Below are positions 6,687 through 57,022 of a stretch of 64,000 nucleotides of DNA, piece by piece. Made by a program: the position numbers and the translations under genes. The notes under the pieces are model-generated. The model was given only the letters and a program-made list of their open reading frames with translations, made no database searches and had not been told where the DNA came from. The stretch is from contig OZ024743.1 of NCBI GenBank assembly GCA_964016885.1, positions 180,048,001 through 180,112,000 on the forward strand, in the 5' to 3' direction. Within the stretch, counting starts at the first letter, position 1. Each line of letters begins with the position of its first letter. Source of the DNA: Eledone cirrhosa. Lineage: Eukaryota.

Positions 6687-7669
6687 TGCACTCTGAATAT
6701 GGAGATCGCGAAAATATTAAAACCACCTAAGTCTATTTTCGAGATTTCAAGACCAACATAGTTGAAGCATGGGCGAGACTGTCGCTACTGGTCAAATAAT
6801 TTGTTTAACCTTTCACGATATTTTAGCAAGAGTTTTATGCCAAATTGATGAAAGTAACGGCATATTTTTGATTTCATTGTATATACCCAGTGAATTATAT
6901 TAATTGGCTAAACAAGGTCAAATAAAATCAAATATATATATAGGTGTAATGAGTCATAAACTTCCTAGGTATGTCAACAAAGGGTAAGGGGAAAGGCATG
7001 AAGAGAATACTCGGCATGAAATATATTCATACTTGCTGAATATGGATAGGGGATAACATATTAATTAGCGAAGACTATCCTTGTATTTTCAGGATCAGTA
7101 CTCCCTCTGCAAATAAGGAAGAGCAGTCCTTTACTTTGAGCTGATGTAACATTTTTTTTTTTTTAGATTAGACAGTAGTATATTGAATGCCCCATATAAT
7201 TTTGTTCGATGCTTATTTGATAGTGCCAAATAACGACAAAAATAAATTGACGTAATATAAAGCTTATCCAAAGCCTGCTTCAGGCAAGACCTGTATTCAG
7301 TTGCGTTTCCTGAACACATTTGAGACTTTAAAGACAGAAGAATTAAATATCCTACTATGAGTTAGAATATAGCCAATGACATGAGAGTGTACATGTAAGA
7401 AACTAGATGTAAAGTGTGTTAACGGAATATATAACATTTCTTACATTGCCTGTTAATATCCTGAATTCAAGTGATCAAAACTTCATAGGCATATTGCTAG
7501 ACATTCATTCACACTTATTTTTTACATAGGGTGAATTCTACCTACAAACCAGATACCTAATGTTTATATCTTGGATTTTTGTTCTATTCATTGGATCGTT
7601 TTAAGCCAGATTCAACCCCAGTATCCCTCAGGGGATGTGTTTTCTTGGCCTCCAATTTGCACTGTCTCC

Positions 7670-8585: not shown

Positions 8586-8834
8586 ATTGCAGTGAAGTGA
8601 ATATCTGAAAGCATATCTTCAATATAATTGGTGCTCTAATGTAAGAAATAAAGATTTCTTTTATCATTTTATAAGATGTAACTTTCCATGTACCGGTTAT
8701 ATGGGTTGTATGTTATTAGTCGCATTGAAGAGCGACCTGGCATATACATACATACATACATACATACATACATACATACATACATACAAACATACATACA
8801 TACATACATACATACATACATACATACATACATA

Positions 8835-9190
8835 GTGGCTGCCAACTCGTGTTCGAGTACGGCCACTAGTTTATATCCATGTAGGAGAACCCCTACCGAT
8901 GCACTGAACGAGTGTGACTTTTTAGTCCAGCCAGCGACTTGAAAACTCTGGTACAAACACTACACTTGTGACAATTATTGACACATAGTGCTGGGCCCAT
9001 GGTACCATGTGACGACAAGTGCAGAGAGATCTCCAGATATAAGCAATGCCTGTGCCGTGAAGTTTTTATAGTGAGCAAAGGCACTGCACAAAGCCAGTCC
9101 CACTCTCTTAAGCAAGATGATATTTACCAAAAAGAAGAACAAGTCAACATCATTGGATACCATCAGAGTTGCAGGTGTTATATCAGAGTT
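8835..9190 (-). mobile_element. RTE-derived non-autonomous element, 5'-truncated unit A
   Basis: 356 bp, near-identical to 9292-9647. Encodes an RTE-type C-terminal finger CSVCTRVFKSLAGLKSHTRSVHR*, then a 3' hairpin (ctcgaacacgag) and (TATG)n tail. Confidence 0.75.
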
Positions 9191-9291
9191 ACATACATAC
9201 ATACAAACATACATACATACATACATACATACATACATACATACATACATACATACATACATACATACATACATACATACATACATACATA

Positions 9292-9647
9292 GTGGCTGCC
9301 AACTCGTTTTCGAGTACGGCCACTAGTTTATATCCATGTAGGAGAACCCCTACCGATGCACTGAACGAGTGTGACTTTTTAGTCCAGCCAGCGACTTGAA
9401 AACTCTGGTACAAACACTACACTTGTGACAATTATTGACACATAGTGCTGGGCCCATGGTACCATGTGACGACAAGTGCAGATAGATCTCCAGATATAAG
9501 CAATGCCTGTGCCGTGAAGTTTTTATAGTGAGCAAAGGCACTGCACAAAGCCAGTCCCACTCTCTTAAGCAAGATGATATTTACCAAAAAGAAGAACAAG
9601 TCAACATCATTGGATACCATCAGAGTTGCAGGTGTTATATCAGAGTT
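9292..9647 (-). mobile_element. RTE-derived non-autonomous element, 5'-truncated unit B
   Basis: Same end points as unit A, with about 2 substitutions. Confidence 0.75.
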
Positions 9648-9836: not shown

Positions 9837-9916
9837 CATACATACATACATACATACATACATACATACATACATACATACATACATACATACATAGATA
9901 CATACATACATACATG

Positions 9917-10479
9917 GTGGCTGCCAACTCGTTTTCGTTTACGGCCACTACTTTATATCCATGTAGGAGAACCCCTACCGATGCGCTGAACGAGTGTGAC
10001 ATTTTAGTCCAGCCAGCGACTTGAAAACTCTGGTACAAACACTACACTTGTGACAATTATTGACACATAGTGCTGGGCCCATGGCACCATGTGACGACAA
10101 GTGCAGAGAGATCTCCAGATATAAAGCAATGCCTATGCCGTGAAGCTTTCATAGTGAGCAAAGGCACTGCACAAAGCCAGTCCCACTCTATTAACCAAGA
10201 TGATATTTACCAAAAAGAAGAACATGTCAACATCATTGGATACCATCAGAATTGCAGGTGTTATATCAGAGTTTTCCTTCTCCTAGAATCTGCCTTAACA
10301 AAGGCTAAGGGGTCATCTCTCCCGGTGATTTTGGATGGCAATTGACTCTTAAGAGCTCCTTTGCCCTTTGACAGGTTTTGTTTTTAGTCCTGGAGGATGT
10401 CCAAAGTCACCCTCCTCCCCAAGAAACCTTGGTGGGGTTGCCAGTTTAGTCGCCAACGACCCGACCATGAGACAGGTTG
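9917..10479 (-). mobile_element. Longest RTE-derived bipartite SINE-like unit C (RTE-like 5' UTR joined to RTE-like 3' end, no EN/RT)
   Basis: Extends A/B by ~210 bp that contain the RTE 5' UTR-type motif 'ctaggagaaggaaaactctga'. Flanked by (TATG)n on both sides. Confidence 0.7.
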
Positions 10480-10552
10480 TACATACATACATACATACAT
10501 ACATACATACATACATACATACATACATACATACATACATACATACATACAT

Positions 10553-11059
10553 AGCTTCCCAGCAGATGCCAATATAATATCAAAGATTAGCGAAAAAGAG
10601 AATATTTATGCAGAACTAGAGAAATCTGCAGATACTCCAGCCTGATTACACCTTCAGATTTATGCCTGTGATTATTGAGGCACTGGGGTATGTTAGTAAC
10701 TGCCTCAATACAAATCTTAAGAAGCTAGGCTTCACAGGAACAGAAATAACACAACGAGTTAGGAAATTAGAAATACAATCCATTAATGGAACAGTAAAAA
10801 TATGTAAAACATTCCAAAAATGTTGCATCTAATAACTGCATATACACATATACAGATGCAACGCATATACACATGCACACATACAACTCAAAACACACAC
10901 ATCCACACATACAATAACATCGACAGCTACACATGCATGCATACATAATCTACCTAGTTGATGTTGTGTAAATTCCAATGAGAGAGTCTTGTGTCTATGT
11001 TAGAAAGCGACTCTCTCTTTATTGGGAAAACATTTGTGAAATTATAAAACCAGAAGAAC
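10553..11059 (+). mobile_element. 3' fragment of R4/Dong-like LINE family B (REL C-terminus and 3' UTR)
   Basis: PADANIISKISEKENIYAEL..FRFMPVIIEALGY..GTVKICKTF is homologous to the C-terminus of the 14382 ORF. Ends in (TACA)n. Confidence 0.85.
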
Positions 11060-11135
11060 ATACATACATACATACATACATACATACATACATACATACA
11101 TACATACATACATACATACATACATACATACATAC

Positions 11136-14100
11136 AACCCTTGTAGACAACCACCCCACCTCCATTGACAGACAAAGAGAATGGCCAGCTAAATCTAACA
11201 GTGAACAGCTCACCAACAATTTTGCTGAAATCCATCCCACTTCCACTGAAGAACAGCGAGAAAGGTCAGCTGACTCTAGTAGTAATTGTCACCACATCAA
11301 AAACGAGGCTGCAATTCATGACTCTACTGAACAAACAGAGCACCAAAAACTTGTGGGCACCCTACAAGTGATATGGAACGATATGTTTCAAGAGATACAC
11401 AACCTTAATGTGAGTGACAGACCATACAACACCAGAATCAGTAAAGAACCCACTAAATTGGAATTGGAAGCGGTGAACGAAATAGCTGGCAATTATCTGA
11501 AGGCTATACGATCTAAAGGTGTAGAAACGACATTTGAAACGCTCAATGTTTTGTTATATGTTTCAGCTGTCACATTGCTATCATATAACACACATCTAAA
11601 AGCACGCAATCAAGATACAAACAGAAAGCCTGAACCAGCGTGGATGCGAAATTTAAAAACCAAAATTTTGTCCCTCAGACGAAGTATCTCACACATCGCA
11701 GTCGTTATGAAATGCAACATAGAGAGAAACTTCACACGACACCAGGAAGACCTAAAGAAAAAGTTAGAGAGACGATTTGGAGATACCAAATTTAAAACTT
11801 TGAACTCCAAATTACACCAGTTAAAACAACAACTCACAGCTACAACAGAAAGACTAAAATATAAGTCAACAGCCCATAAACGACAAGTGCTAAATAGATT
11901 GTTTGCCAGAGATCCTAAATCAGTTTATCGCAGCTTCGGTGGCAAAAGCTCAATCCCTGTAAACGACACCCCTTCAAAAGAACAGGTTGAGAACTACTGG
12001 AGATCTGTATGGGAAACGGATGACGGATTCAACAGACAAGCTAATTGGCTAAAACAACTGGAACAGGACTACTGCCAACATGTCCAGACAAAACAATATG
12101 ACATAGATGGGTCAATACTGGAAACAGCTCTACAGAAAATGTCGTATAGGAAATCGCCAGGCCCAGACCTCATTACAGGATACTGGTTGAAGAATTTCAC
12201 TTTCTATCGGCAAGATCTCATACGACTGTTTACAGAAACCATTAAGGGCACACAAGAACTGCCCAGATGGTTATCAACTGCCACTACTCTCCTCATTCCC
12301 CAAAATAGCCAAACCACCCTTGCTAAAAATTACCGCCCAATTGCCTGCCAAAACATCATGTATAAATTATATACTGGGTGCCTTAACCTGTTCTTACAGG
12401 ATCACTGTGCTACCAACAACATCATAACACCTGAGCAAGCTGGTGGAAAGAGGGAGGTGTGGGGTTGCATAGATCACCTACTAACTAACAAAATGATTCA
12501 GGAAAAAACAACAAGGAATCGCAGAAACATGACTGTCGTGTGGCTGGACTATCAAAAAGCATTTGATAGTGTACCTCATGGGTGGATTATTAAGGCTTTA
12601 CAGTTAGCTAAAGTCCCACAACCATTAGTAGCTGCTGTTGAACGCCTGACCAAGAACTGGTACACCAATTTGATCCTTACAGGTGAGAAGGAGCAGGTTA
12701 AGACTGATAGGATACATTACCAGAAGGGCATCTTTCAGGGTGATAGCTTGTCAGTACTACTCTTCGTTCTCTCACTGAATCCACTATCTTACCTACTCAG
12801 GAAACAAGGTGGACAAAGAAGTGGGCCCAGAAGTATCTCCCATCTTTTCTTTGTTGATGACCTGAAGTTGTATGGGCCAAATATCAATGACATCAAGAAA
12901 CAATTGGACCTCATTACACAATTTTCAACCGACATCAAAATGAAATTTGGTGAGTCCAAGTGTGCATATTTGGCAGTAAAACGTGGAAGAGCTGTGCCCT
13001 CCTCTAGAAATCTAGATATGAACGGCCTGACAATACAACCTCTGCAGTCAGGTGACAACTACAGATATCTTGGACAGGATGAGAATGTCAGATATGATGG
13101 ACCCATAAATAAGGAGAGAACCAGAACTGAATACCTCAGAAGAGTAAAAAAAATATGGTCATCAGAACTGTCAGCATACAACAAATACATTGCCCACAAT
13201 ACTTATGCTGTGCCAATTCTAACGCCAACATTTGGCCTACTGAACTGGTCATTGCAAGAACTAAGTGAGATGGATGTTAGAACTCGAAAACTTCTCAGTG
13301 TTACTGGGAACTTTAACATCAATGGTGATGTGGATAGGCTATACTTCTCACGCAAGGAAGGTGGCCGGGGTCTAAAATCAATATTAACAACATATGAGAC
13401 CCGGATAGTAACACTGAAGCAACACCTTCAACAGAGGAAAAAGGTTGGCGACCATCTTGCTCAGGTTTATGAGCATGAAAAAAGAAACATCATTAGAATA
13501 GCGACTGATCTGGAGGACAGATATGGAATAAAGCCTGATATAAATCTCTCACCCAGAGAAATCGGAAGATCCTATTCAATGTTCAAACAAGAAAAAAAAA
13601 TTGACCAATTTACAGAGAAAGTTGTGCATGGATACTTGAGGCGTAAAACACAGACCATAGAGGGGATAAACCACTCAAAAAGCCTGGCATGGAGTTCCGA
13701 CAAGTTTATGACATCACACCTTGAGGGATATCTCTATGCAATACAGGAACAAGAACTCCCTACCAAATATCTGCTGCACAAAAGAGGAGGGCCAGCAGCT
13801 GACAATAAATGTAGGCTATGTAAAACAAAGATCGAGGATGTAAGCCACATTGTTGCCAGCTGCGAAAGAATGTCATCTCGCTACTACCTCCCCATGAGAC
13901 ACGATGGGATAGCTAGAACTATCTGGAACGCACTTCGGAAAACAAAATTAACAACAAACGAGGAAGAATATATTGAGACAGATGGCACTAAGGAATACTG
14001 GTGGAACCTGAAAATAAAAACTGCCACCAAATTAAAGCACAACCGGCCTGATATTGTAGTTTGGGACCACACATTGAAAACGTGTTCTGTTGTGGAGATC

Positions 14101-14382
14101 AGCTGCCCACTTGATGTAAACGTTGTCAGAAAAATACAGGAGAAGGAGGACATCTACGGACCATTGATGAGGAGCTTACAAATCCAGTATCCAAGATACA
14201 CCTTTAGCTTCATACCCATCATTATTGGTGCTACGGGTTATATACCAACCCGCTTGGACCAAAGTATGACCGAACTTGGATTTGCGGACAAAAAGCGCAG
14301 CTCCCTAATTCATAGTCTACAAATGGCTGCGATAGCTGGCACCTTCAAAATATGCAAAACATTCTCGCGATTCAAGGGATGA
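11136..14382 (+). CDS. Reverse transcriptase / zinc knuckle / restriction-like endonuclease polyprotein (uninterrupted, probably 5'-truncated)
   Basis: KSPGPD, NYRPIAC, WLDYQKAFDSVPH, GIFQGDSLS, FFVDDLKL, YRYLG, CRLC..HIVASC, RHD, HNRPDIVV..VEISCP..K. The ORF-track start at 10978 is read-through of upstream repeats. Confidence 0.9.
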
Positions 14383-14462
14383 CAATTTCTTTTCTTTTAC
14401 AACCTTGCCACCAGGAAGGTGGCCGGTCAAAAAAATATACTCGAAATTAAGAGAAAGAGAAA
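11136..14462 (+). mobile_element. R4/Dong-type RLE non-LTR retrotransposon, family A, inserted in (TACA)n
   Basis: Single ORF with RT, CCHC and REL, an 80-bp 3' UTR, and (TACA)n on both sides. Confidence 0.92.
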
Positions 14463-14510
14463 ACATACATACATACATACATACATACATACATACATAC
14501 ATACATACAT

Positions 14511-16113
14511 ACTCAGGAAACAAGGTGAACAAAGAAGTGGGTCCAGAAGTATCTCCCATCTTTTCTTTACTGATGACCTGAAGTTGTATGGGTCAAATAT
14601 CAATGACATCAAGAAACAATTGGACCTCATTACACAATTTTCAACCGACATCAAAATGAAATTTGGTGAGTCCAAGTGTGCATATTTGGCAGTAAAACGT
14701 GGAAGAGCTGTGCCCTCCTCTAGTAATCTAGAGATGAACGGCCTGACAATACAACCTTTACAGTCAGGTGACAACTACAGATATCTTGAACAGGATGAGA
14801 ATGTCAGATATGATGGACCCATAAATAAGGAGAGAACCAGAACTGAATACCTCAGAAGAGTAAAGAAAATATGGTCATCAGAGCTGTCAGCGTACAACAA
14901 ATACATTGCCCACAATACTTATGCTGTGCCAATTCTAATGCCAACATTTAGCCTGCTGAACTGGTCATTGCAAGAACTAAGTGAGATGGATGTTAGAACT
15001 CGCAAAGTTCTCGGTGTTACTGAGAACTTTAACATCAATGGTGATATAGATAGGCTATACTTCTCACGCAAGGAAGGTGGCCGGGGTCTAAAATCAATAT
15101 TAACAACATATGAGACCCGGATAGTAACACTGAAGCAACACCCTCATCAGAGGAAAAAGGTTGGCAACCATATTGCCCAGGTTTATGAGCAGAGAAATCT
15201 CACCCAGAGAAATTGGAAGATCCTATTCAATGTTCAAACAAGATAAAAAATTGACCAATTTACAGAAAAAGTTCTGCATGGATACTTGAGGCGTAAAACA
15301 CAGACCATAGAGGGGATAAACCACTCAAAAAGCCTGGCATGGAGTTCCGACAAGTTTATGACATGACACCTTGAGGGATATCTCTATGCAATACAGGAAC
15401 AAGAACTCCCTACCAAATATCTGCTGCACAAAAGAGGAGGGCCAGCAGCTGACAATAAATGTAGGCTATGTAAAACAAAGATCGAGGATGTAAGCCACAT
15501 TGTTGCCAGCTGCGAAAGAATGTCATCTCGCTACTACCTCCCCATGAGACACGATGGGATAGCTAGAACCATCTGGAACGCCCTTCGGAAAACAAAATTA
15601 ACAACAAACGAGGAAGAATATATTGAGACAGATTGCACTAAGGAATACTGGTGGAACCTGAAAATAAAAACTGCCACCAAATTAAAGCACAACCGGCCTG
15701 ATATTGTTTTTTGGGACCACACATTGAAAACGTGTTCTGTTGTGGAGATCAGCTGCCCACTTGATGTAAACGTTGTTAGAAAAATACAGGAGAAGGAGGA
15801 CATCTACGGACCATTGATGAGGAGTTTACGAATCCAGTATCCAATATACACCTTTAGCTTCATACCCATCATTATTGGAGCTACGGGTTATATACCAACC
15901 CGCTTGGACCAAAGTATGACTGAACTTGGATTAGCGGACAAAAAGCGCAGCTCTTTAATTCATAGTCTACAAATGGCTGCGATAGCTGGCACCTTCAAAA
16001 TTTGCAAAACATTCTTGCGATTCAAGGAATGACAATTTCTTTTCTTTTACAACCTTGCCACCAGGAAGGTGGCCGGTCAAAAAAAATATACTCGAAATTA
16101 AGAAAAAGAGATA
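14511..16113 (+). mobile_element. Second, 5'-truncated and mutated copy of Dong family A
   Basis: Starts at the position equivalent to ~12795 of copy 1. Has a ~75-bp deletion near 15190, a stop at ~15364, and the same 3' UTR followed by TACA. Confidence 0.92.
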
Positions 16114-40897: not shown

Positions 40898-40923
40898 ATT
40901 ATTATTAGTATTATTATTATTAT

Positions 40924-43900
40924 GCATTTATCTTGCTTTATGTTCATACGAGTTATCACCAAGTCACAACCAGTGACCTCAAGAGACAACAAGGTCCGCC
41001 ATGTTCAAGAAAGAACATACATACTCACACATGCATCTTTAGTGTTTAGACTTGTGATGTACTTATATTGACAGAATCTTCCTTAGTATATGGCAGTTCC
41101 CATTAGTACTATCTTTTGTATTTCTCCTATACGCGGGTTTCCTGGGATTTGCGATAAGTAATCATTAGACCCCTTAGGTATCATTCCTCGAGCGCCTACA
41201 ACCACTGATATTGTTTTATTTCTCAATTTCCACAGTTTTCCAATTTCTATCTCCAGGTCCTTATACTTGTCAATTTTTCAAATGTTTTTATAGATACATT
41301 CTTGTCTATTGGAACGGAAATATCAATTAGCAGGCATACCCTCTTTTTAAAGTCCTTCAATATTACATCAGGTCTATTTGCATCTATTTTTCGGTCTGTT
41401 TGGATGCTAAAGTTCCACAAGATTGAGATGTGATCTTTTTCAAGTATGGGAGGTGGCTGATGCTCCCACCAATTCTTTTGATGGGGCAGGTCAAAATGCT
41501 TACACATTATCCAATGTATGTATTGTGCAGCTCTGTCATGCCTGTTTAGGTATTCGGTTGGAGCTATAGGACTGCACATTGAAATTATATGGTCAATGAT
41601 CTCTGGTTGTTTTTTACATACACGGCATAATGGGCTGCATCCATTTTTTATTACGTTGGCTTGGTAATTTTTTGTTGGCAGACACTGATCTTGTGCTGAT
41701 ATAATCAGTCCTTCAGTCTCCGATTTCAGTCCAGAGGATGCCAACCACTGATGGGTTAAAGTTTTGTCAACATCAGGATTGTTAGCTCGTTCTGGGTATT
41801 TTCCATACAGAGGCTTTTCTTGCCATTTCTAAGCCAGTTTCTGTAGCAGTTCTTTCTTTGCAGTTACTTTTACCTGCTTTGCTTTTTCTGTGTTTTCCAT
41901 TTCAGCAGTAAATGGGACTTCTGAAATCTGTAGTCCATTACTGTATCTTTGTGCATCTTTTGTAATGGAGTATGATCTTTTGATGCTTTCGTGTTTCAAA
42001 CGAGTTTGATCATCCAATCATGTGATTCCCTTAGATATGTAGATAATCCAATTGTTGCAGCTTTCAACGCAATGTCTAACTGGATTAACCCACGTCCTCC
42101 TTCTTTCCTAGGGAGATATATTCTATCTGTATCTGCCTTAGGGTGATGCATTCTGTGCATGGTTAAGAATGTTCGAATTTTTGTATCGAGCCTACGGATC
42201 TCTATGCTTGACCAGTTGATGACATTGTAACTGTAGGTTACAACTGGTATGGCAAGCGTGTTTATGGCATCGATCCTATTCCTTGCATTCAATTCCGTTC
42301 TTAAGATTGCTCTTACTCTGCGGTAACATTCCTTCCTTATCCTTTCCCTCATTGTCGAGTGCTTGATTCCGTCTCCTTCACAAACACCTAGATATTTGTA
42401 AGTTTCCTCTTGATCAAGTTCTCTTATCACATTCCCTAGATAAAGATTAATGTCTGAACTTTTCAGCAGCTTTCCTCTGGTGAACGCTGCTTTGGCGCAT
42501 TTATCCAGTCCAAACTCCATTTTAATGTTATCACTGAACTGCTCCACAGTGGATAATAGCCCTTGCAATTGTTCATCATTTTTTGCAAATAGTTTCAGGT
42601 CATCCATGTAGAACAAGTGATTAATGGTTTTGTCATAGACTTTATATCCATGTTTTGTTTCATTGAGCATTTTACTTAATGGTATAAGTGCGATGCAGAA
42701 TAAAAGCGGTGATAAAGAGTCACCCTGAAAAATTCCATAATTAATATTAACTTCTCCAGCTTCCAGTGATTTTTTTTCACTATTCAAAAGGAGTGTCGTT
42801 TTCCATGTCTTCATACTGAATGACAAAAACCTCCTGACAACGGGGGATATTTTGAAAATCTCTAAACATTTTTCAATCCAACTGTGTGGCAAACCATCGA
42901 ATGCTTTTTTATAATCTATCCAAGTAATTGATAGATATTTGTGTCTATTATGACAATCTTCCAGTATCATTTTGTTAACCAAAAGCTGATCCTTACAGCC
43001 ATATGAGCCTCGTTTACACCCTTTCTGCTCAATGGGAAATAGGTCATTTGTTATCAGGTGGTCATATGTATACTCAGTTAGGACTGATGTTAAAATGTTA
43101 TACATTGTGGTCAAGCAAGTTATCGGTCTGTAATTTTTGGGATTGTTTGTCTCATCATTCTTCGGAAGCAGGAATGTAATGCCGTTAATTAGCCATGATG
43201 GTATCTTTTCTGGCTCCTTAACTATTTCATTGTAAAGTTGGGCTAACAGCTCATGAGACTCTGTGAAGGCATTTATCCAAAAACTTTGTATTTTGTCTTT
43301 TCCTGGGGATTTCCATTTGCTGGTTCTTCTTAGAGCCAAACGCAACTGTTCAACTGTTATATTTTCCCATATTTGTTCCTCAAGGTGAGGTGTATCTTTC
43401 ATTTGTCTGTCTATCCATGGGGCATGTATATTATGAACTTTTTCTTCGGCCCACATGTTTCATTTTCCCTTCGCTGACTTTGTGCCAATAGCTTGATCTG
43501 ATCAAATTCTATATCAGTTAGTAACTTTTTTCTTACAATATTTCTTCGAATATTGGCTAGTGTGTTACTGTCAATATAGCCTCTGTTTTCGGGATGTTTC
43601 TTTTTCCAGTTGATATATGTCTGTTCTGTATTCGATGTATTTGATGGGTAGTACATGGCAGTGTAGAAAGCCTCAAGGACTTCTTTATTATCTTCCCTTG
43701 ACCATTTTTCTCTCTTTTTCTTTGGATTTCTTGGTGGTGAGCATGGAGGGCCAATAGTAGGGGTATTCCGGTTATGGGAGGTCTCCAGTACCGAAGTGAT
43801 GGGAAGGTTTGAACCATTAGCTGATTTTTCGAGCCCAGTCTGGTTCGTCTCTGAGGGACGCGGCCCTTTTTTACCCGGGTGACGGCCGATCCGGTGTGAG

Positions 43901-44158
43901 ATTTTATCATTAGACATTTACTTTATTTTGTCGCGTTTTATCCTTATCCGCCAAGGGTTAATCATTTCGCGTTACCACTTCTAGAACGAGTGTCAACCAA
44001 GACTAGAGGGGTCGTTCTCCCCTAGAGACACGGCTATTCCCCGTCGGCCGCCATCCCGGTATTTGTTGGTCACGGGGTTTTCTTTTTTGTTGTTTTGTTA
44101 AATTGTTATTATCATGAGTGGTTCCTTAATGTGAGCATTGCGTGATTTAAGAATGAAA
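40924..44158 (-). mobile_element. R4/Dong-type RLE LINE family C, copy 1, (TAA)n-flanked, ~750-bp deletion at ~43455
   Basis: ATG 43917 (KKREKWSRED..FY), KSPGKD, DYKKAFD, FQGDSLSP, FYMDDLKL, CRVC..HIISMC, RHD, ANRPDVIL..IDISVP. Confidence 0.92.
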
Positions 44159-44167
44159 TTATTAATA

Positions 44168-44215
44168 ATTGTCTCCACTCCAGGCACAAGGCCAGGAATT
44201 ACCCAGTGCATTACA
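44168..44215 (-). mobile_element. SINE 3' fragment
   Basis: 'gcacaaggccaggaattacccagtgcattac'. Absent at the paralogous site (~56605). Confidence 0.65.
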
Positions 44216-44630
44216 ATAATATAATATACTTTTTGCTGAAGTTGCCTGTTATTGTTGTTGGCTATGTCGGTGGTGGTGCTGGGGCTTTTTATATTGTTGG
44301 TGGGGAAGGGGGGAGCCAGCAGTGCCATAGTTGTTTACTTTTGGCCGGTGGCCGGGTCACTAAGTCAATCTATTTATATCTTTTGCTAACCTCTCCCTTG
44401 TCTAGTGATACCGCCACCTTCCCCTTTCTTAAGTTAACAGAAGGTAATGGAATAGTGGTGGTAGCAATGAAGGATTGGTGGCGGCGGTGATGAGATAGTG
44501 GTAGCAATGATGGATGGAGTGGTGGCGGCGGTGGTGTTGTCGTTACTGAGTTTTGTAGTTTTGTTTGATCTGTAGTATCTATGCGTTTGTGTCGCGTATG
44601 TTTAATATATTTGTTGACATATTCTCTTAA
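44216..44630. repeat. Duplicated spacer; paralog at ~56607-57240
   Basis: Colinear sequence 'atatactttttgctgaagttgcctg...gttgacatatt'. Confidence 0.88.
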
Positions 44631-53572: not shown

Positions 53573-56500
53573 GCATTTATCTTGCTTTATGTTCATACGA
53601 GTTATCACCAAGTTACAACCAGTGACCTCAAGAGACAACAAGGTCCACCATGTTCAAGAAAGAACATACATACTCACACATGCAACTTTAGGTGTTTAGA
53701 CATGTGATGTACTTATATTGACAGAATCTTCCTTAGTATATGGCAGTTCCCATTAGTACTATCTTTTGTATTTCTCCTCGGGTTTCCTGGGTTTTGCGAT
53801 AAGTAATCATTAGACCCCTTAGGTATCATTCCTAGAGCGCCTACAACCACTGGTATTGTTTTAGTTCTCAATTTCCACATTTTTCCAATTTCTATCTCCA
53901 GGTCCTTATACTTGCTCAATTTTAGGTTACTACTGGTATGGCAAGCGTGTTTATGGCATCGATCCTATTCCTTGCATTCAATTCCGTTCTTAAGATTGCT
54001 CTTACTCTGCGGTAACATTCCTTCCTTATCCTTTCCTTCATTGTCGAGTGCTTGAATCGGTCTCCTTCACAAACACCTAGATATTTGTAAGTTTCCTCTT
54101 GATCAAGTTCTCTTATCACATTCCCCCGATCAAGATTAATGTCTGAACTTTTCAACAGCTTTCCTCTGGTGAACGTTGCTTTGGCGCATTTATTTAGTCC
54201 AAACTCCATTTTAATATCATCACTGAACTGCTCCACAGTGGATAATAGCCCTTGCAATTGTTCATCATTTTTTGCAAATAGTTTCAGGTCATCCATGTAG
54301 AACAGGTGATTAATGGTTTTGTCATAGACTTTATATCCATGTTTTGTTTCATTGAGCATTTTACTTAATGGTATAAGTGCGATGCAGAATAAAAGCGGTG
54401 ATAAAGAGTCACCCTGAAAAATTCCACAATTAATATTAACTTCTCCAGCTTCCAGTGATTTTGATTCACTATTCAAAAGGAGTGTCGTTTTCCATGTCTT
54501 CATACTGAATGACTGACAAGAACCTCCTCATAACGACAGATATTTTGAAAATCTCTAAACATTTTTCAATACAACTGTGTGGCAAACTATCGAATGCTTT
54601 TTTATAATCTATCCAAGCAATTGATAGATTTTTGTGTCTATTATGGCAATCTTCCAGTATCATTTTGTTAACCAAAAGCTGATCCTTACAGCCATATGAG
54701 CCTCGTTTACACCCTTTCTGCTCAATGGGAAATAGGTCATTTGTTATCAGGTGGTCATATGTATATTCAGTTAGGAGTGATGTTAAAATGTTATGCATTG
54801 TTGTCAAGCAAGTTATCGGTCTCTAATTTTGGGGATTGTTTGTCTCATCATTCTTCGGAAGCAGGAATGTAATGCCGTTAACTAGCCATGATGGTATCTT
54901 TTCTCGCTCTTTAACTATTTCATTGTAAAGTTGAGCTAACAGCTCATGAGACTCTGTGAAAGCATTTATCCAAACATTTGGTACTTTGTTTTTTCCTGGG
55001 AATTTCCATTTGTTGCTTTTTCTTAGAGCCAAACGCAACTGTTCAACTGTTATATTTTCCCACATTTGTTCCTCAAGGTGAGATGTATCTTTCATTTGTC
55101 TGTCTATCCATGGGGCATGTATATTATGAACTTTTTCTTCGGCCCAGATCTTTTCCCAGAATTCTTGCACTTCCTCCTTGGGTGGTATTGATTTAGCAGT
55201 TATCGTTGACTTGCCAATTTTTCTGTAGAAGTTTCTTTCGTTGTTTTTGAACATATTATTGTCCTTATAGAATCTAGATCGTTTTTCAAAGTGCCTTATC
55301 CGAGCAGCTTTGGCCGACACTTTTTGCTCGATTATTTCTATCAGCATGTCTATGTCACTTGTTGATTTTATACTGTATTTTCTTTTCAATTTTCTAAGTT
55401 TAGCTTGTCTAACATTTTGACCTACTTTGTAGTTTGTTAAAATTTCTGTCAGATTGGAGAAGGTTTATTTAGCGATTGATGTTCTCTTGCCAAGTAGATT
55501 TCTTGAGGGAATTCCTTTGTTTTTTTTCATTTTCACTCCACATAAGTGAGTGGTGACTTTAGCCGATGCATAATAGAGATCATTTAAATCAGTAATGTTT
55601 AGTTTGTTTGAGAATTATGTTAGTCTTGTGTATTATCTTTTGGTTCGGTTTGGAGTTCCCCCATGTCAGATTCTTTCATTTTAATCCATTCGATCATAAT
55701 TTCATCCTTCAAGTTGGCAAGTTCATTCTCATTCATTTCTTTATCATTTACTATCTCATTGTTTTCATTTGGAGTTTCATCTTGAGCATGCACTCCCTCC
55801 ACTTTTTCGATCCTTTCTTTAATTTGTTCTGTTGTCAGTGATTCCGCCCCAACCCTGGGATTCGAAGTGTTACAATTTACCTCGTTTTCACTGACGCATG
55901 TTTCATTTTCCCTTCGCTGACTTTGTGCTAATAGCTTGATCTGATCAATTTCTATATCAGTTAGTAACTTTTTTTTAACAATATTTCGTCGTATATTGGC
56001 TAGTTTGTTACTGTCAATATAGCCTCTGTTTTCGGGATGTTTCTTTTTCTAGTTGATATATATCTGTTCTGTATTCGATGTATTTGATGGGTAGTACATG
56101 GCAGTGTAGAAAGCCTCAAGGACTTCTTTATTATCTTCCCTTGACCATTCTTCTCTCATTTTCTTTGGATTTCTTGGTGGTGAGCATGGAGGGCCAACAG
56201 TAGGAGTATTCCGGTTATGGGAGGTCTCCAGCTCCGAAGTGATGGGAAGGTTTGAACCATTAGCTGATTTTACGACCCCAGTCTTGTTCCTCTCTGAGGG
56301 ACGCGGCCCTTTTTGACCCGGGTGACGGCCGATCCGGTATGAGATTTTATCTTTAGACATTTACTTTATTTTGTCGCGTTTTATCCTTATCCGCCAAGGG
56401 GTAATCATTTCGTGTTACCACTTCTAGGACGAGTGTCAACCAAGACTAGAGGGGTCGTCCTCCCCTAGAGACACGGCTATTCCCCGCCTGTCGCCATCCC

Positions 56501-56599
56501 GTATTTCTTGGTGACGGGGTTTTCTTTTTTGTTGTTTTTTAAATTGTTAGTATCATGAGTGGTTCCTTGATCTGAGCATTGCGTGGCTTCAGAATGAAA
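53573..56599 (-). mobile_element. R4/Dong-type family C, copy 2, ~960-bp deletion at ~53922
   Basis: Same termini as 40924-44158. ATG at 56360. RT motifs present, CCHC and most of REL missing. Confidence 0.92.
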
Positions 56600-56838
56600 T
56601 TATTAATAATATAATATACTTTTTGCTGAAGTTGCCTGTTATTGTTGTTGGCTATGTCGGTGGTGGTGCTGGGGCTTTTTCTATTGTTGGTGGGGAAGGG
56701 GGGATCCAGCAGTGCCATAGTCATTGACGTTTGGCCGGTGGCCGGGTCACTATGTCAATCTATTTATATCTTTTGCTAGCCTCTCCCTTGTCTAGTGATA
56801 CCGCCATCTTCCCCTTTCTTAAGTTAACAGAAAATAAT

Positions 56839-57022
56839 TGTTTCTACCTTTGGCACAAGGCCAGCAATTACCCAGTACATTACTGGTACTTTATTTTATC
56901 GACCCCGCAAGGATGAAAGGCAAAGTCAACCTCGGCGGGATTTGAACTCAGATCGTAAAGGGACGTAACTATGCTGGAAAGCATGGCGTCCGACCCTCTA
57001 CCGATACTGCCAATCCACCGCC
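56839..57022 (-). mobile_element. SINE with 15-bp TSD
   Basis: ttaacagaaaataat at 56824-56838 and 57023-57037. Empty site at ~44434-44448. Confidence 0.93.

Follow-up and report, generated by a model that had tools for sequence, protein, structure and literature searches.

The window, by which we mean the whole 64,000-nt stretch of Eledone cirrhosa DNA that was analyzed, carries three units of a SINE and two copies of an R4-type LINE; SINE unit C and both LINE copies contain the RNA module that is the subject of this analysis (Table 1).

Table 1. Elements of the window and the modules they carry
Feature	Position	Strand	Description
SINE unit A	8832..9190	−	5′-truncated SINE copy, begins at SINE nt 251
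SINE unit B	9289..9647	−	Tandem duplicate of unit A, identical 5′ junction
SINE unit C	9916..10481	−	Putatively bipartite RTE-like non-autonomous element; sits in (ATGT)n; ~607 nt when whole
Module in unit C	10255..10324	−	S1 3 bp; S2 reduced by wear to 4 consecutive pairs; 5-bp hairpin S3; then RTE-typical purine-rich 3′ half
Dong LINE copy 1	40920..44626	−	R4-type; has RT, restriction-like endonuclease and CCHC finger but not APE; inserted in (TAA)n; deleted internally near 43456; 43917 is the main ATG
Module in Dong copy 1	43954..44024	−	S1 44022-44019 with 44011-44008; S2 44018-44012 with 43989-43983; S3 44003-44001 with 43994-43992
Dong LINE copy 2	53716..56850 (ends approximate)	−	
Module in Dong copy 2	56398..56467	−	S2 carries an A-U to G-C compensatory change

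Retroelements of the window

The 5′ end of unit C falls about 41 nt short of the full SINE, whose 3′ anchor has 24,456 exact matches in the genome. Both the module and a C2H2 finger remnant in the 3′ part (E = 0.006, under the Pfam cut-off) would fit a bipartite architecture, with a 5′ UTR part fused to the 3′ terminus of a parental RTE; the match to an RTE C-terminus is weak (E = 0.012). None of 30 matches to a variant pattern was the autonomous parent: 27 were SINE copies, two an RTE and one another short variant. In some SINE copies (L062, L063 and L336) the 5′ part is inverted, as in twin priming. Units A and B share a common 5′ flank and are identical at 352 of 354 positions, and because of this identity and their one shared junction we count them as a single event.

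The LINE shows the traits of the R4/Dong clade, namely a single ORF with RT, a CCHC finger and a restriction-like endonuclease but without APE, and insertion in (TAA)n. The protein of an intact relative (L265), 1216 aa long, matches structures of R2 proteins across the RT and the endonuclease. In an RT tree which, like the set of homologs, contains no named R4/Dong reference, the LINE is placed apart from RTE. From its architecture and its target site, we provisionally call the element Dong. Another family of R4/Dong type, with 32% identity to this one across 866 aa and apparently 5′-truncated, lies at 10972-16017 on the plus strand; no module match was found in it.

The shared module and its predicted fold

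An earlier note on this DNA had drawn attention to a motif common to unit C (10283-10323) and Dong (43981-44021). The strings quoted there lie at these positions, the sense strand of both elements being the minus strand, and the features described for them (GGG/CCC stem, second hairpin, UUCUAG) are present. The module as we delimit it is larger than that motif, ~70 nt. Kojima (2018) reported a conserved sequence in the middle of the 5′ UTR of RTE LINEs of many animals, of Ceph-SINEs and of bird SINEs; AviRTE has it in two places, and Ingi-3_AC and R4-1_ADi contain it as well (PMC5786205). Over 18 nt of its 3′ half, the SINE module is identical to the published sequences. A covariance model (R1) built from RTE-side copies, with no window sequence included, scored the SINE at 51 bits (E = 2.9e-15), partly by construction as the seed pattern was taken from the SINE 3′ half, and the two Dong copies at 26.6 (copy 1, E = 8.5e-07) and 24.9 bits (copy 2), against ≤9.8 bits for the rest of the window. 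The Dong matches are independent of the seed pattern because Dong does not carry it. By sequence similarity, the module thus appears to be the published domain. A fourth R1 match, within the SINE at 10372-10421 (9.8 bits, E = 0.54), is background.

The location in the middle of the 5′ UTR also agrees: S1, the first stem of the module, starts at nt 200 of the SINE, the Dong module lies ~1 kb into the 5′ UTR, and other modules are found upstream of APE ORFs (L267, L200, L201, L155, L202 and L204). Sampling with the SINE 3′-half pattern yielded autonomous RTE loci, 24 tRNA-headed SINE loci on genome contigs and 120 metagenome loci, and several of the metagenome modules sit upstream of RTE ORFs. 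The autonomous, APE-bearing RTE of this same genome bears the module (L096, L116 and L267). RTE keeps the 3′ half of the module nearly invariant, whereas that of Dong has diverged. In viral contigs there were 0 matches to the 3′ half and no Dong relative; of five matches to the 5′ half, four were one identical sequence (16.3 bits) picked by the pattern, and these were not counted.

Some RTE 5′ UTRs contain two to four tandem modules of ~71 nt (L200 1863-2149, L216, L166, L165 and L240). By eye, the first unit of these arrays seems expanded, with ~100 nt in the place of S3 and S2 pairing at long range. Two tandem modules with intact S2 were also seen on the minus strand of L196 (2856-2931 and 2990-3065), 300-430 nt upstream of a frame with APE and RT. 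This frame, present in one contig only, resembles L2/CR1 and groups in the tree with neither RTE nor Dong; it may represent a further LINE group that carries the module.

Each unit is laid out as S1a (4 nt), S2a (7 nt), S1b (4 nt), a 3-5-nt linker, the 3-bp hairpin S3, a 2-3-nt linker, S2b (7 nt), AG and a small hairpin S4. The module is thereby predicted to fold as a pseudoknot, in which the 7-nt loop of the 4-bp stem S1 pairs with a downstream strand (S2) across S3, and covariation supports this fold. In an alignment of 36 units (A1), 93.6% of 612 cells were paired and five of the seven S2 pairs had changes on both sides, a result reached by 0 of 500 shuffles; when the strands were slid as controls, pairing dropped to 19-45%. 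The alignment comprised 33 of the 42 non-redundant units with ≥13 of 14 pairs (from 110 contexts; nine were left out) and three others, and S3 is undercounted in it since ~12 rows are off by one column there. As these units had been chosen for pairing, a second set of 60 haplotypes was drawn from 147 contexts by sequence anchors, blind to structure. In this set S2 was paired in 81.4% versus 68.2% with shuffled strands (0 of 5000 shuffles), and the excess of G-U (112) over A-C (20) points to the sense strand; few host genomes are represented in either set, and relatedness among the sequences is not preserved by the shuffling. S4 is nearly invariant and so has no covariation support. By eye, S2 is paired at 7 of 7 positions, with differing letters, in 10 published families (RTE-3_BF, RTE-1_NV, RTE-4_AMi, RTE-6B_HRo, RTE-1_DR, RTE-13_SP, AviRTE_MUni, Ingi-3_AC, SepiaSINE and OegopSINE).

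Within the window, a strict 14-pair descriptor matched both Dong copies only, each with 14 of 14 pairs formed by its own letters, and gave five matches in 20 shuffled windows. In copy 1 the full set of pairs is retained together with a diverged 3′ half. Among the 63 of 90 Dong copies that fitted our parsing pattern, one S2 pair is A-U in 54, G-C in eight and G-G in one; this is one compensatory event and points to selection on the fold in the Dong lineage. The strict descriptor does not fit the SINE module, in which the S2 duplex has an energy of just −0.6 kcal/mol. The weaker loop pairing of this copy, which the earlier note had remarked upon, corresponds to a worn form of the covarying 7-bp pseudoknot helix. 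Single-sequence folding was unremarkable (z from −0.15 to +1.10 in six of six folds). Rfam gave 0 matches in the window at its gathering thresholds, and three modules searched with E values of up to 10 brought up no relevant family.

The proposal that an RNA module is common to APE-type (RTE) and RLE-type (R4/Dong) LINEs is borne out by reciprocal covariance models, both of which scored well above background. The reverse model (R2), built from 12 Dong copies, scored the RTE of this genome at 32.2 bits (E = 1.1e-07) and ranked RTE-side modules first among 23 loci. A Dong-trained model had been named as a check on the proposal; it detects canonical RTE UTRs and misses the worn SINE copy of the window (7.1 bits, E = 7). 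When the SINE and the Dong UTR were aligned directly under three scoring schemes, the score was reached by 17, 8 and 125 of 1000 shuffles with the whole SINE and by 7, 0 and 14 of 1000 with trimmed regions. The direct alignment is only modestly above chance, and homology of the two is established via the canonical RTE module. A 27-bit alignment match near 7000 proved to be unrelated sequence. Outside the module, the Dong UTR showed no similarity to the RTE UTR or to the SINE, and BLASTP gave no significant match of Dong to an RTE RT fragment. From the former and from the patchy published record, we estimate that exchange is fairly probable as the source of the sharing between clades, and common descent correspondingly the less probable.

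The distance to the ORF differs among the elements. The spacing of about 40 nt before an ATG that had been described as common to the two copies is not so: the spacer is 36 nt in the SINE, where a stop follows after two further codons, 63 nt in Dong and about 290 nt, up to the start of the open frame, in the autonomous RTE. In Dong, a 15-codon frame (43918-43965, minus strand) begins in the 3′ end of the module, and its stop directly abuts the main ATG; an ATG was found in 31 of 34 copies. This stop-start layout could serve reinitiation. The module might then be a translation leader for uncapped RNA, IRES-like or acting by reinitiation, and its constant position upstream of an ORF and the RTE frame of L267, which has no ATG ahead of the APE motif, would fit such a role. 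We consider it unlikely, as the module is kept in non-coding SINEs behind tRNA heads, tolerates distances to the ORF from 63 to about 290 nt, and would leave the pile-up of 5′ ends described below unexplained.

5′ ends of genomic copies

To survey SINE 5′ ends, 101 copies were collected by the 3′ anchor, and one was dropped as it was cut by the locus edge. Forty-two of the remaining 100 start at nt 1, at one exact base (absent from the window copy; locus L075), which suggests a processed 5′ end; no HDV fold could be shown for this start. Among the 58 truncated copies, 13 begin at nt 194-206, around the start of S1, a cluster that arose in 1 of 20,000 simulations over the first 240 nt. The rate of truncation per 1000 copy-nt was 12.05 at this edge versus 2.08 upstream and 0.48 downstream. 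Genome-wide, forward-strand junctions with a microsatellite ≤10 nt upstream were most numerous at the edge (1296, nt 192-202), compared with 108 just 3′ of the module (nt 241-251) and 47 further upstream (nt 118-128), and the anchor was retained alike at the three positions; reverse-strand counts were inflated by overlapping matches and were not used. The edge-starting copies are of mixed haplotypes, judged from few diagnostic columns, and a founder sub-family starting at nt 198 is a possible alternative source of the cluster. A smaller cluster of 5′ ends (six of the 58 truncated copies) lies at nt 152-154, corresponding to window position ~10370 on the minus strand.

A short family from metagenomes that lies in (GT)n and is headless (L150, L151, L156, L159, L160 and 20 more loci) begins at the first three bases of S1 in 24 of 25 copies, one of these being a contig edge. 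Dong does not follow this pattern: 0 of 90 copies end ≤6 nt from S1 versus 13 of 84 in the SINE (Fisher p = 1.5e-4). Junction patterns for Dong gave only four loci versus one, and several of its upstream "ends" are alignment breaks, not truncations.

The earlier note had read the 5′ ends of units A and B as a sign that the RT stalls, or that the RNA is cut, just 3′ of the module. The two units do begin there, at SINE nt 251, as one duplicated event rather than as two independent ones. None of the 58 truncated copies starts in nt 241-275, the 35 nt 3′ of the module, and the enrichment of 5′ ends lies instead at the 5′ edge, as the junction counts also indicate. For the SINE, the stall or cut at the 3′ side is therefore almost certainly not the explanation.

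Cleavage just 5′ of S1 by a self-cleaving ribozyme of a new type would account for copies that begin at the front edge of the module in two animals, and 5′ ribozymes are reported in RTE, R4 and Dong. The module resembles the HDV-like ribozymes of R2, R4, Dong, RTE and L1Tc in being a structured 5′ UTR RNA found across LINE clades (PMC3774820, PMC6765202). Those ribozymes lie at the 5′ end and have one cut site, whereas the module is internal, has one pseudoknot and shows ends spread over nt 194-206; the true 5′ end of the SINE, in contrast, is one base. Moreover, sequence upstream of the module survives in 70 of 100 SINE copies, in most Dong copies and in tRNA-headed SINEs. We looked for the HDV fold itself and rejected this identity: there is no nested double pseudoknot with P1.1 and a catalytic C, the covarying S1 is incompatible with P2 in that it takes the strand that P2 needs, no HDV core was seen by eye, and no Rfam ribozyme matched. 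A home-made HDV descriptor was uninformative, with 9 to 788 fits per region. Taken together, a ribozyme is very unlikely.

The 5′ ends might also mark an internal promoter, with the start site at the first bases of the module and the RNA fold as a second role. Ragged ends at a fixed place, a headless family starting there, the tandem arrangement of monomers and, 40-60 nt downstream, a purine-rich box that hardly varies are all compatible with a promoter. Pr77 of L1Tc is described as both promoter and ribozyme, and Kojima (2018) speculated that the domain binds a transcriptional regulator (PMC5786205). A comparable case is the LP head of Nimb-17_LMi, I-3_DR, RTE-9_CPB and mollusc LP-SINEs, a presumed promoter which, like the module, is a 5′ domain of ~70 bp spread across LINE clades and captured by SINEs; it differs in sequence and lies at the very 5′ end (PMC4758252), and two motifs of the module had 0 matches in the four supplement files searched. 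A DNA element would leave the compensatory changes and the G-U bias unexplained, Dong has no pile-up, and for 42 of 100 SINE copies the start lies at a single base 200 nt further upstream. We regard a promoter as decidedly unlikely.

In the text of the openly accessible literature that was searched, we found no structure, pseudoknot, covariation analysis or end pile-up for this domain, and the word pseudoknot occurs 0 times in the text of Kojima (2018; PMC5786205). As an observation on sequence, the sharing across clades is not new, since that paper reported the domain together with one R4 element. What appears to be new here is the pseudoknot with its covariation, the retention of the fold in Dong without the conserved 3′ half, and the pile-up of 5′ ends.

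Possible roles of the module

On the side of the elements, the module is shared between clades, its helices S1 (4 bp), S2 (7 bp) and S3 (3 bp) covary, and the base of S1 is where the 5′ ends of SINE copies accumulate. A portable, xrRNA-like barrier to 5′-to-3′ exonucleases is the role that we favor, with rather less than even confidence. Uncapped or decapped element RNA would be trimmed from its 5′ end until the nuclease reaches the knot; the protected RNA would retain the ORF or the tail and could be copied into DNA, and insertions would then begin at the front edge of the knot. As no element protein would be needed, the module could move between clades by template switching, be retained in SINEs and be stacked in tandem. 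The barrier is favored because it would give one cause for a fold at the RNA level, portability across very distant proteins, retention in non-coding SINEs, tandem copies and ragged ends. Ribozymes at the 5′ end reportedly release the RNAs of RTE and R4, which makes uncapped ends plausible. In R2 systems, template stability has been tied to 5′ truncation, and the HDV fold was proposed to resist 5′-3′ exonucleases in R2 templates (PMC11331408).

The closest known counterparts are the class 3 xrRNAs of plant viruses. Their hairpin loop forms a pseudoknot, for which 3-5 bp can suffice, and Xrn1 is halted where P1 begins, at its base (PMC6299227, PMC11702639, PMC8374639). In both, a hairpin loop pairs with a 3′ strand, as the covariation of S1 and S2 indicates for the module, and a hairpin, optional in class 3, is present just downstream. 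xrRNAs also occur in tandem, as in flaviviruses, and those of class 3 are often upstream of ORFs (PMC6299227, PMC11702639, PMC8374639), and the module shares both habits. Unlike class 3 xrRNAs, the module has a separate hairpin, S3, between S1 and the 3′ strand of S2, lacks stacked P1/P2 with L2B, has no sequence or Rfam match to them and resides in retrotransposons. The 5′ ends at the stem base are RNA ends in class 3, whereas in our case they are ends of DNA copies, found in the SINE and the metagenome family but not in Dong. Judged by its modeled fold, the module is not a member of class 3 and would at best work like an xrRNA.

Several points stand against the barrier, among them these differences from class 3. 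Dong has a perfect knot and no pile-up, the SINE has the weakest knot and the strongest pile-up, and a transcription start site or a protein-linked step of integration predicts the same profile of ends. The latter could arise if the module were a binding site of the RTE protein that gates the end of integration, such that the 5′ junction forms once the RT has copied through it, Dong holding a captured copy that is used otherwise. This would agree with pile-ups in RTE-type elements only and with a 3′ half that is near invariant in RTE and diverged in Dong; the R2 protein is reported to bind a 5′ UTR pseudoknot, and 5′ RNA has been proposed to promote top-strand cleavage by R2Bm. It would not account for the compensatory change that keeps the fold in Dong, nor for the module reported in Ingi-3_AC and R4-1_ADi and seen upstream of an L2/CR1-like ORF in one contig, the proteins of these clades being too distant for a shared specific site, as the BLASTP result for the Dong and RTE RTs illustrates. 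We consider the protein-binding site somewhat unlikely.

The broader proposition, which we put forward tentatively and hold to be less likely than not, is that the module could be a non-viral exoribonuclease-resistant RNA of a new class: a pseudoknot traded among at least three to four retrotransposon clades (RTE, R4/Dong, Ingi and perhaps L2/CR1) and many SINEs, which would protect uncapped RNA and whose stop site would be recorded in thousands of insertions. If the module blocks exonucleases, xrRNAs would extend beyond viruses, and a small stabilizing module would be at hand for inserting genes from RNA templates, a process whose yield is limited by how stable the template is (PMC11331408). 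Should the module instead be an anchor for the protein, it would give a first handle on how RTE proteins complete integration. Kojima (2018) left open what keeps the Ceph-domain and other SINE bodies conserved, and what confines the origin of bipartite elements to certain LINE clades (PMC5786205); with a covarying fold and a mapped pile-up, one such conserved domain becomes a defined 70-nt RNA that is open to biochemical test.

Two further observations were made on the sampled loci. Some contigs of two bacterial MAGs (L121-L144) are full of tRNA-headed animal SINEs, and these MAGs therefore include host DNA. A minimal variant of the module, with S2 of 4 bp, lies in another short element of the Eledone genome (L111 1490-1555, minus strand) and scores 38.3 bits.
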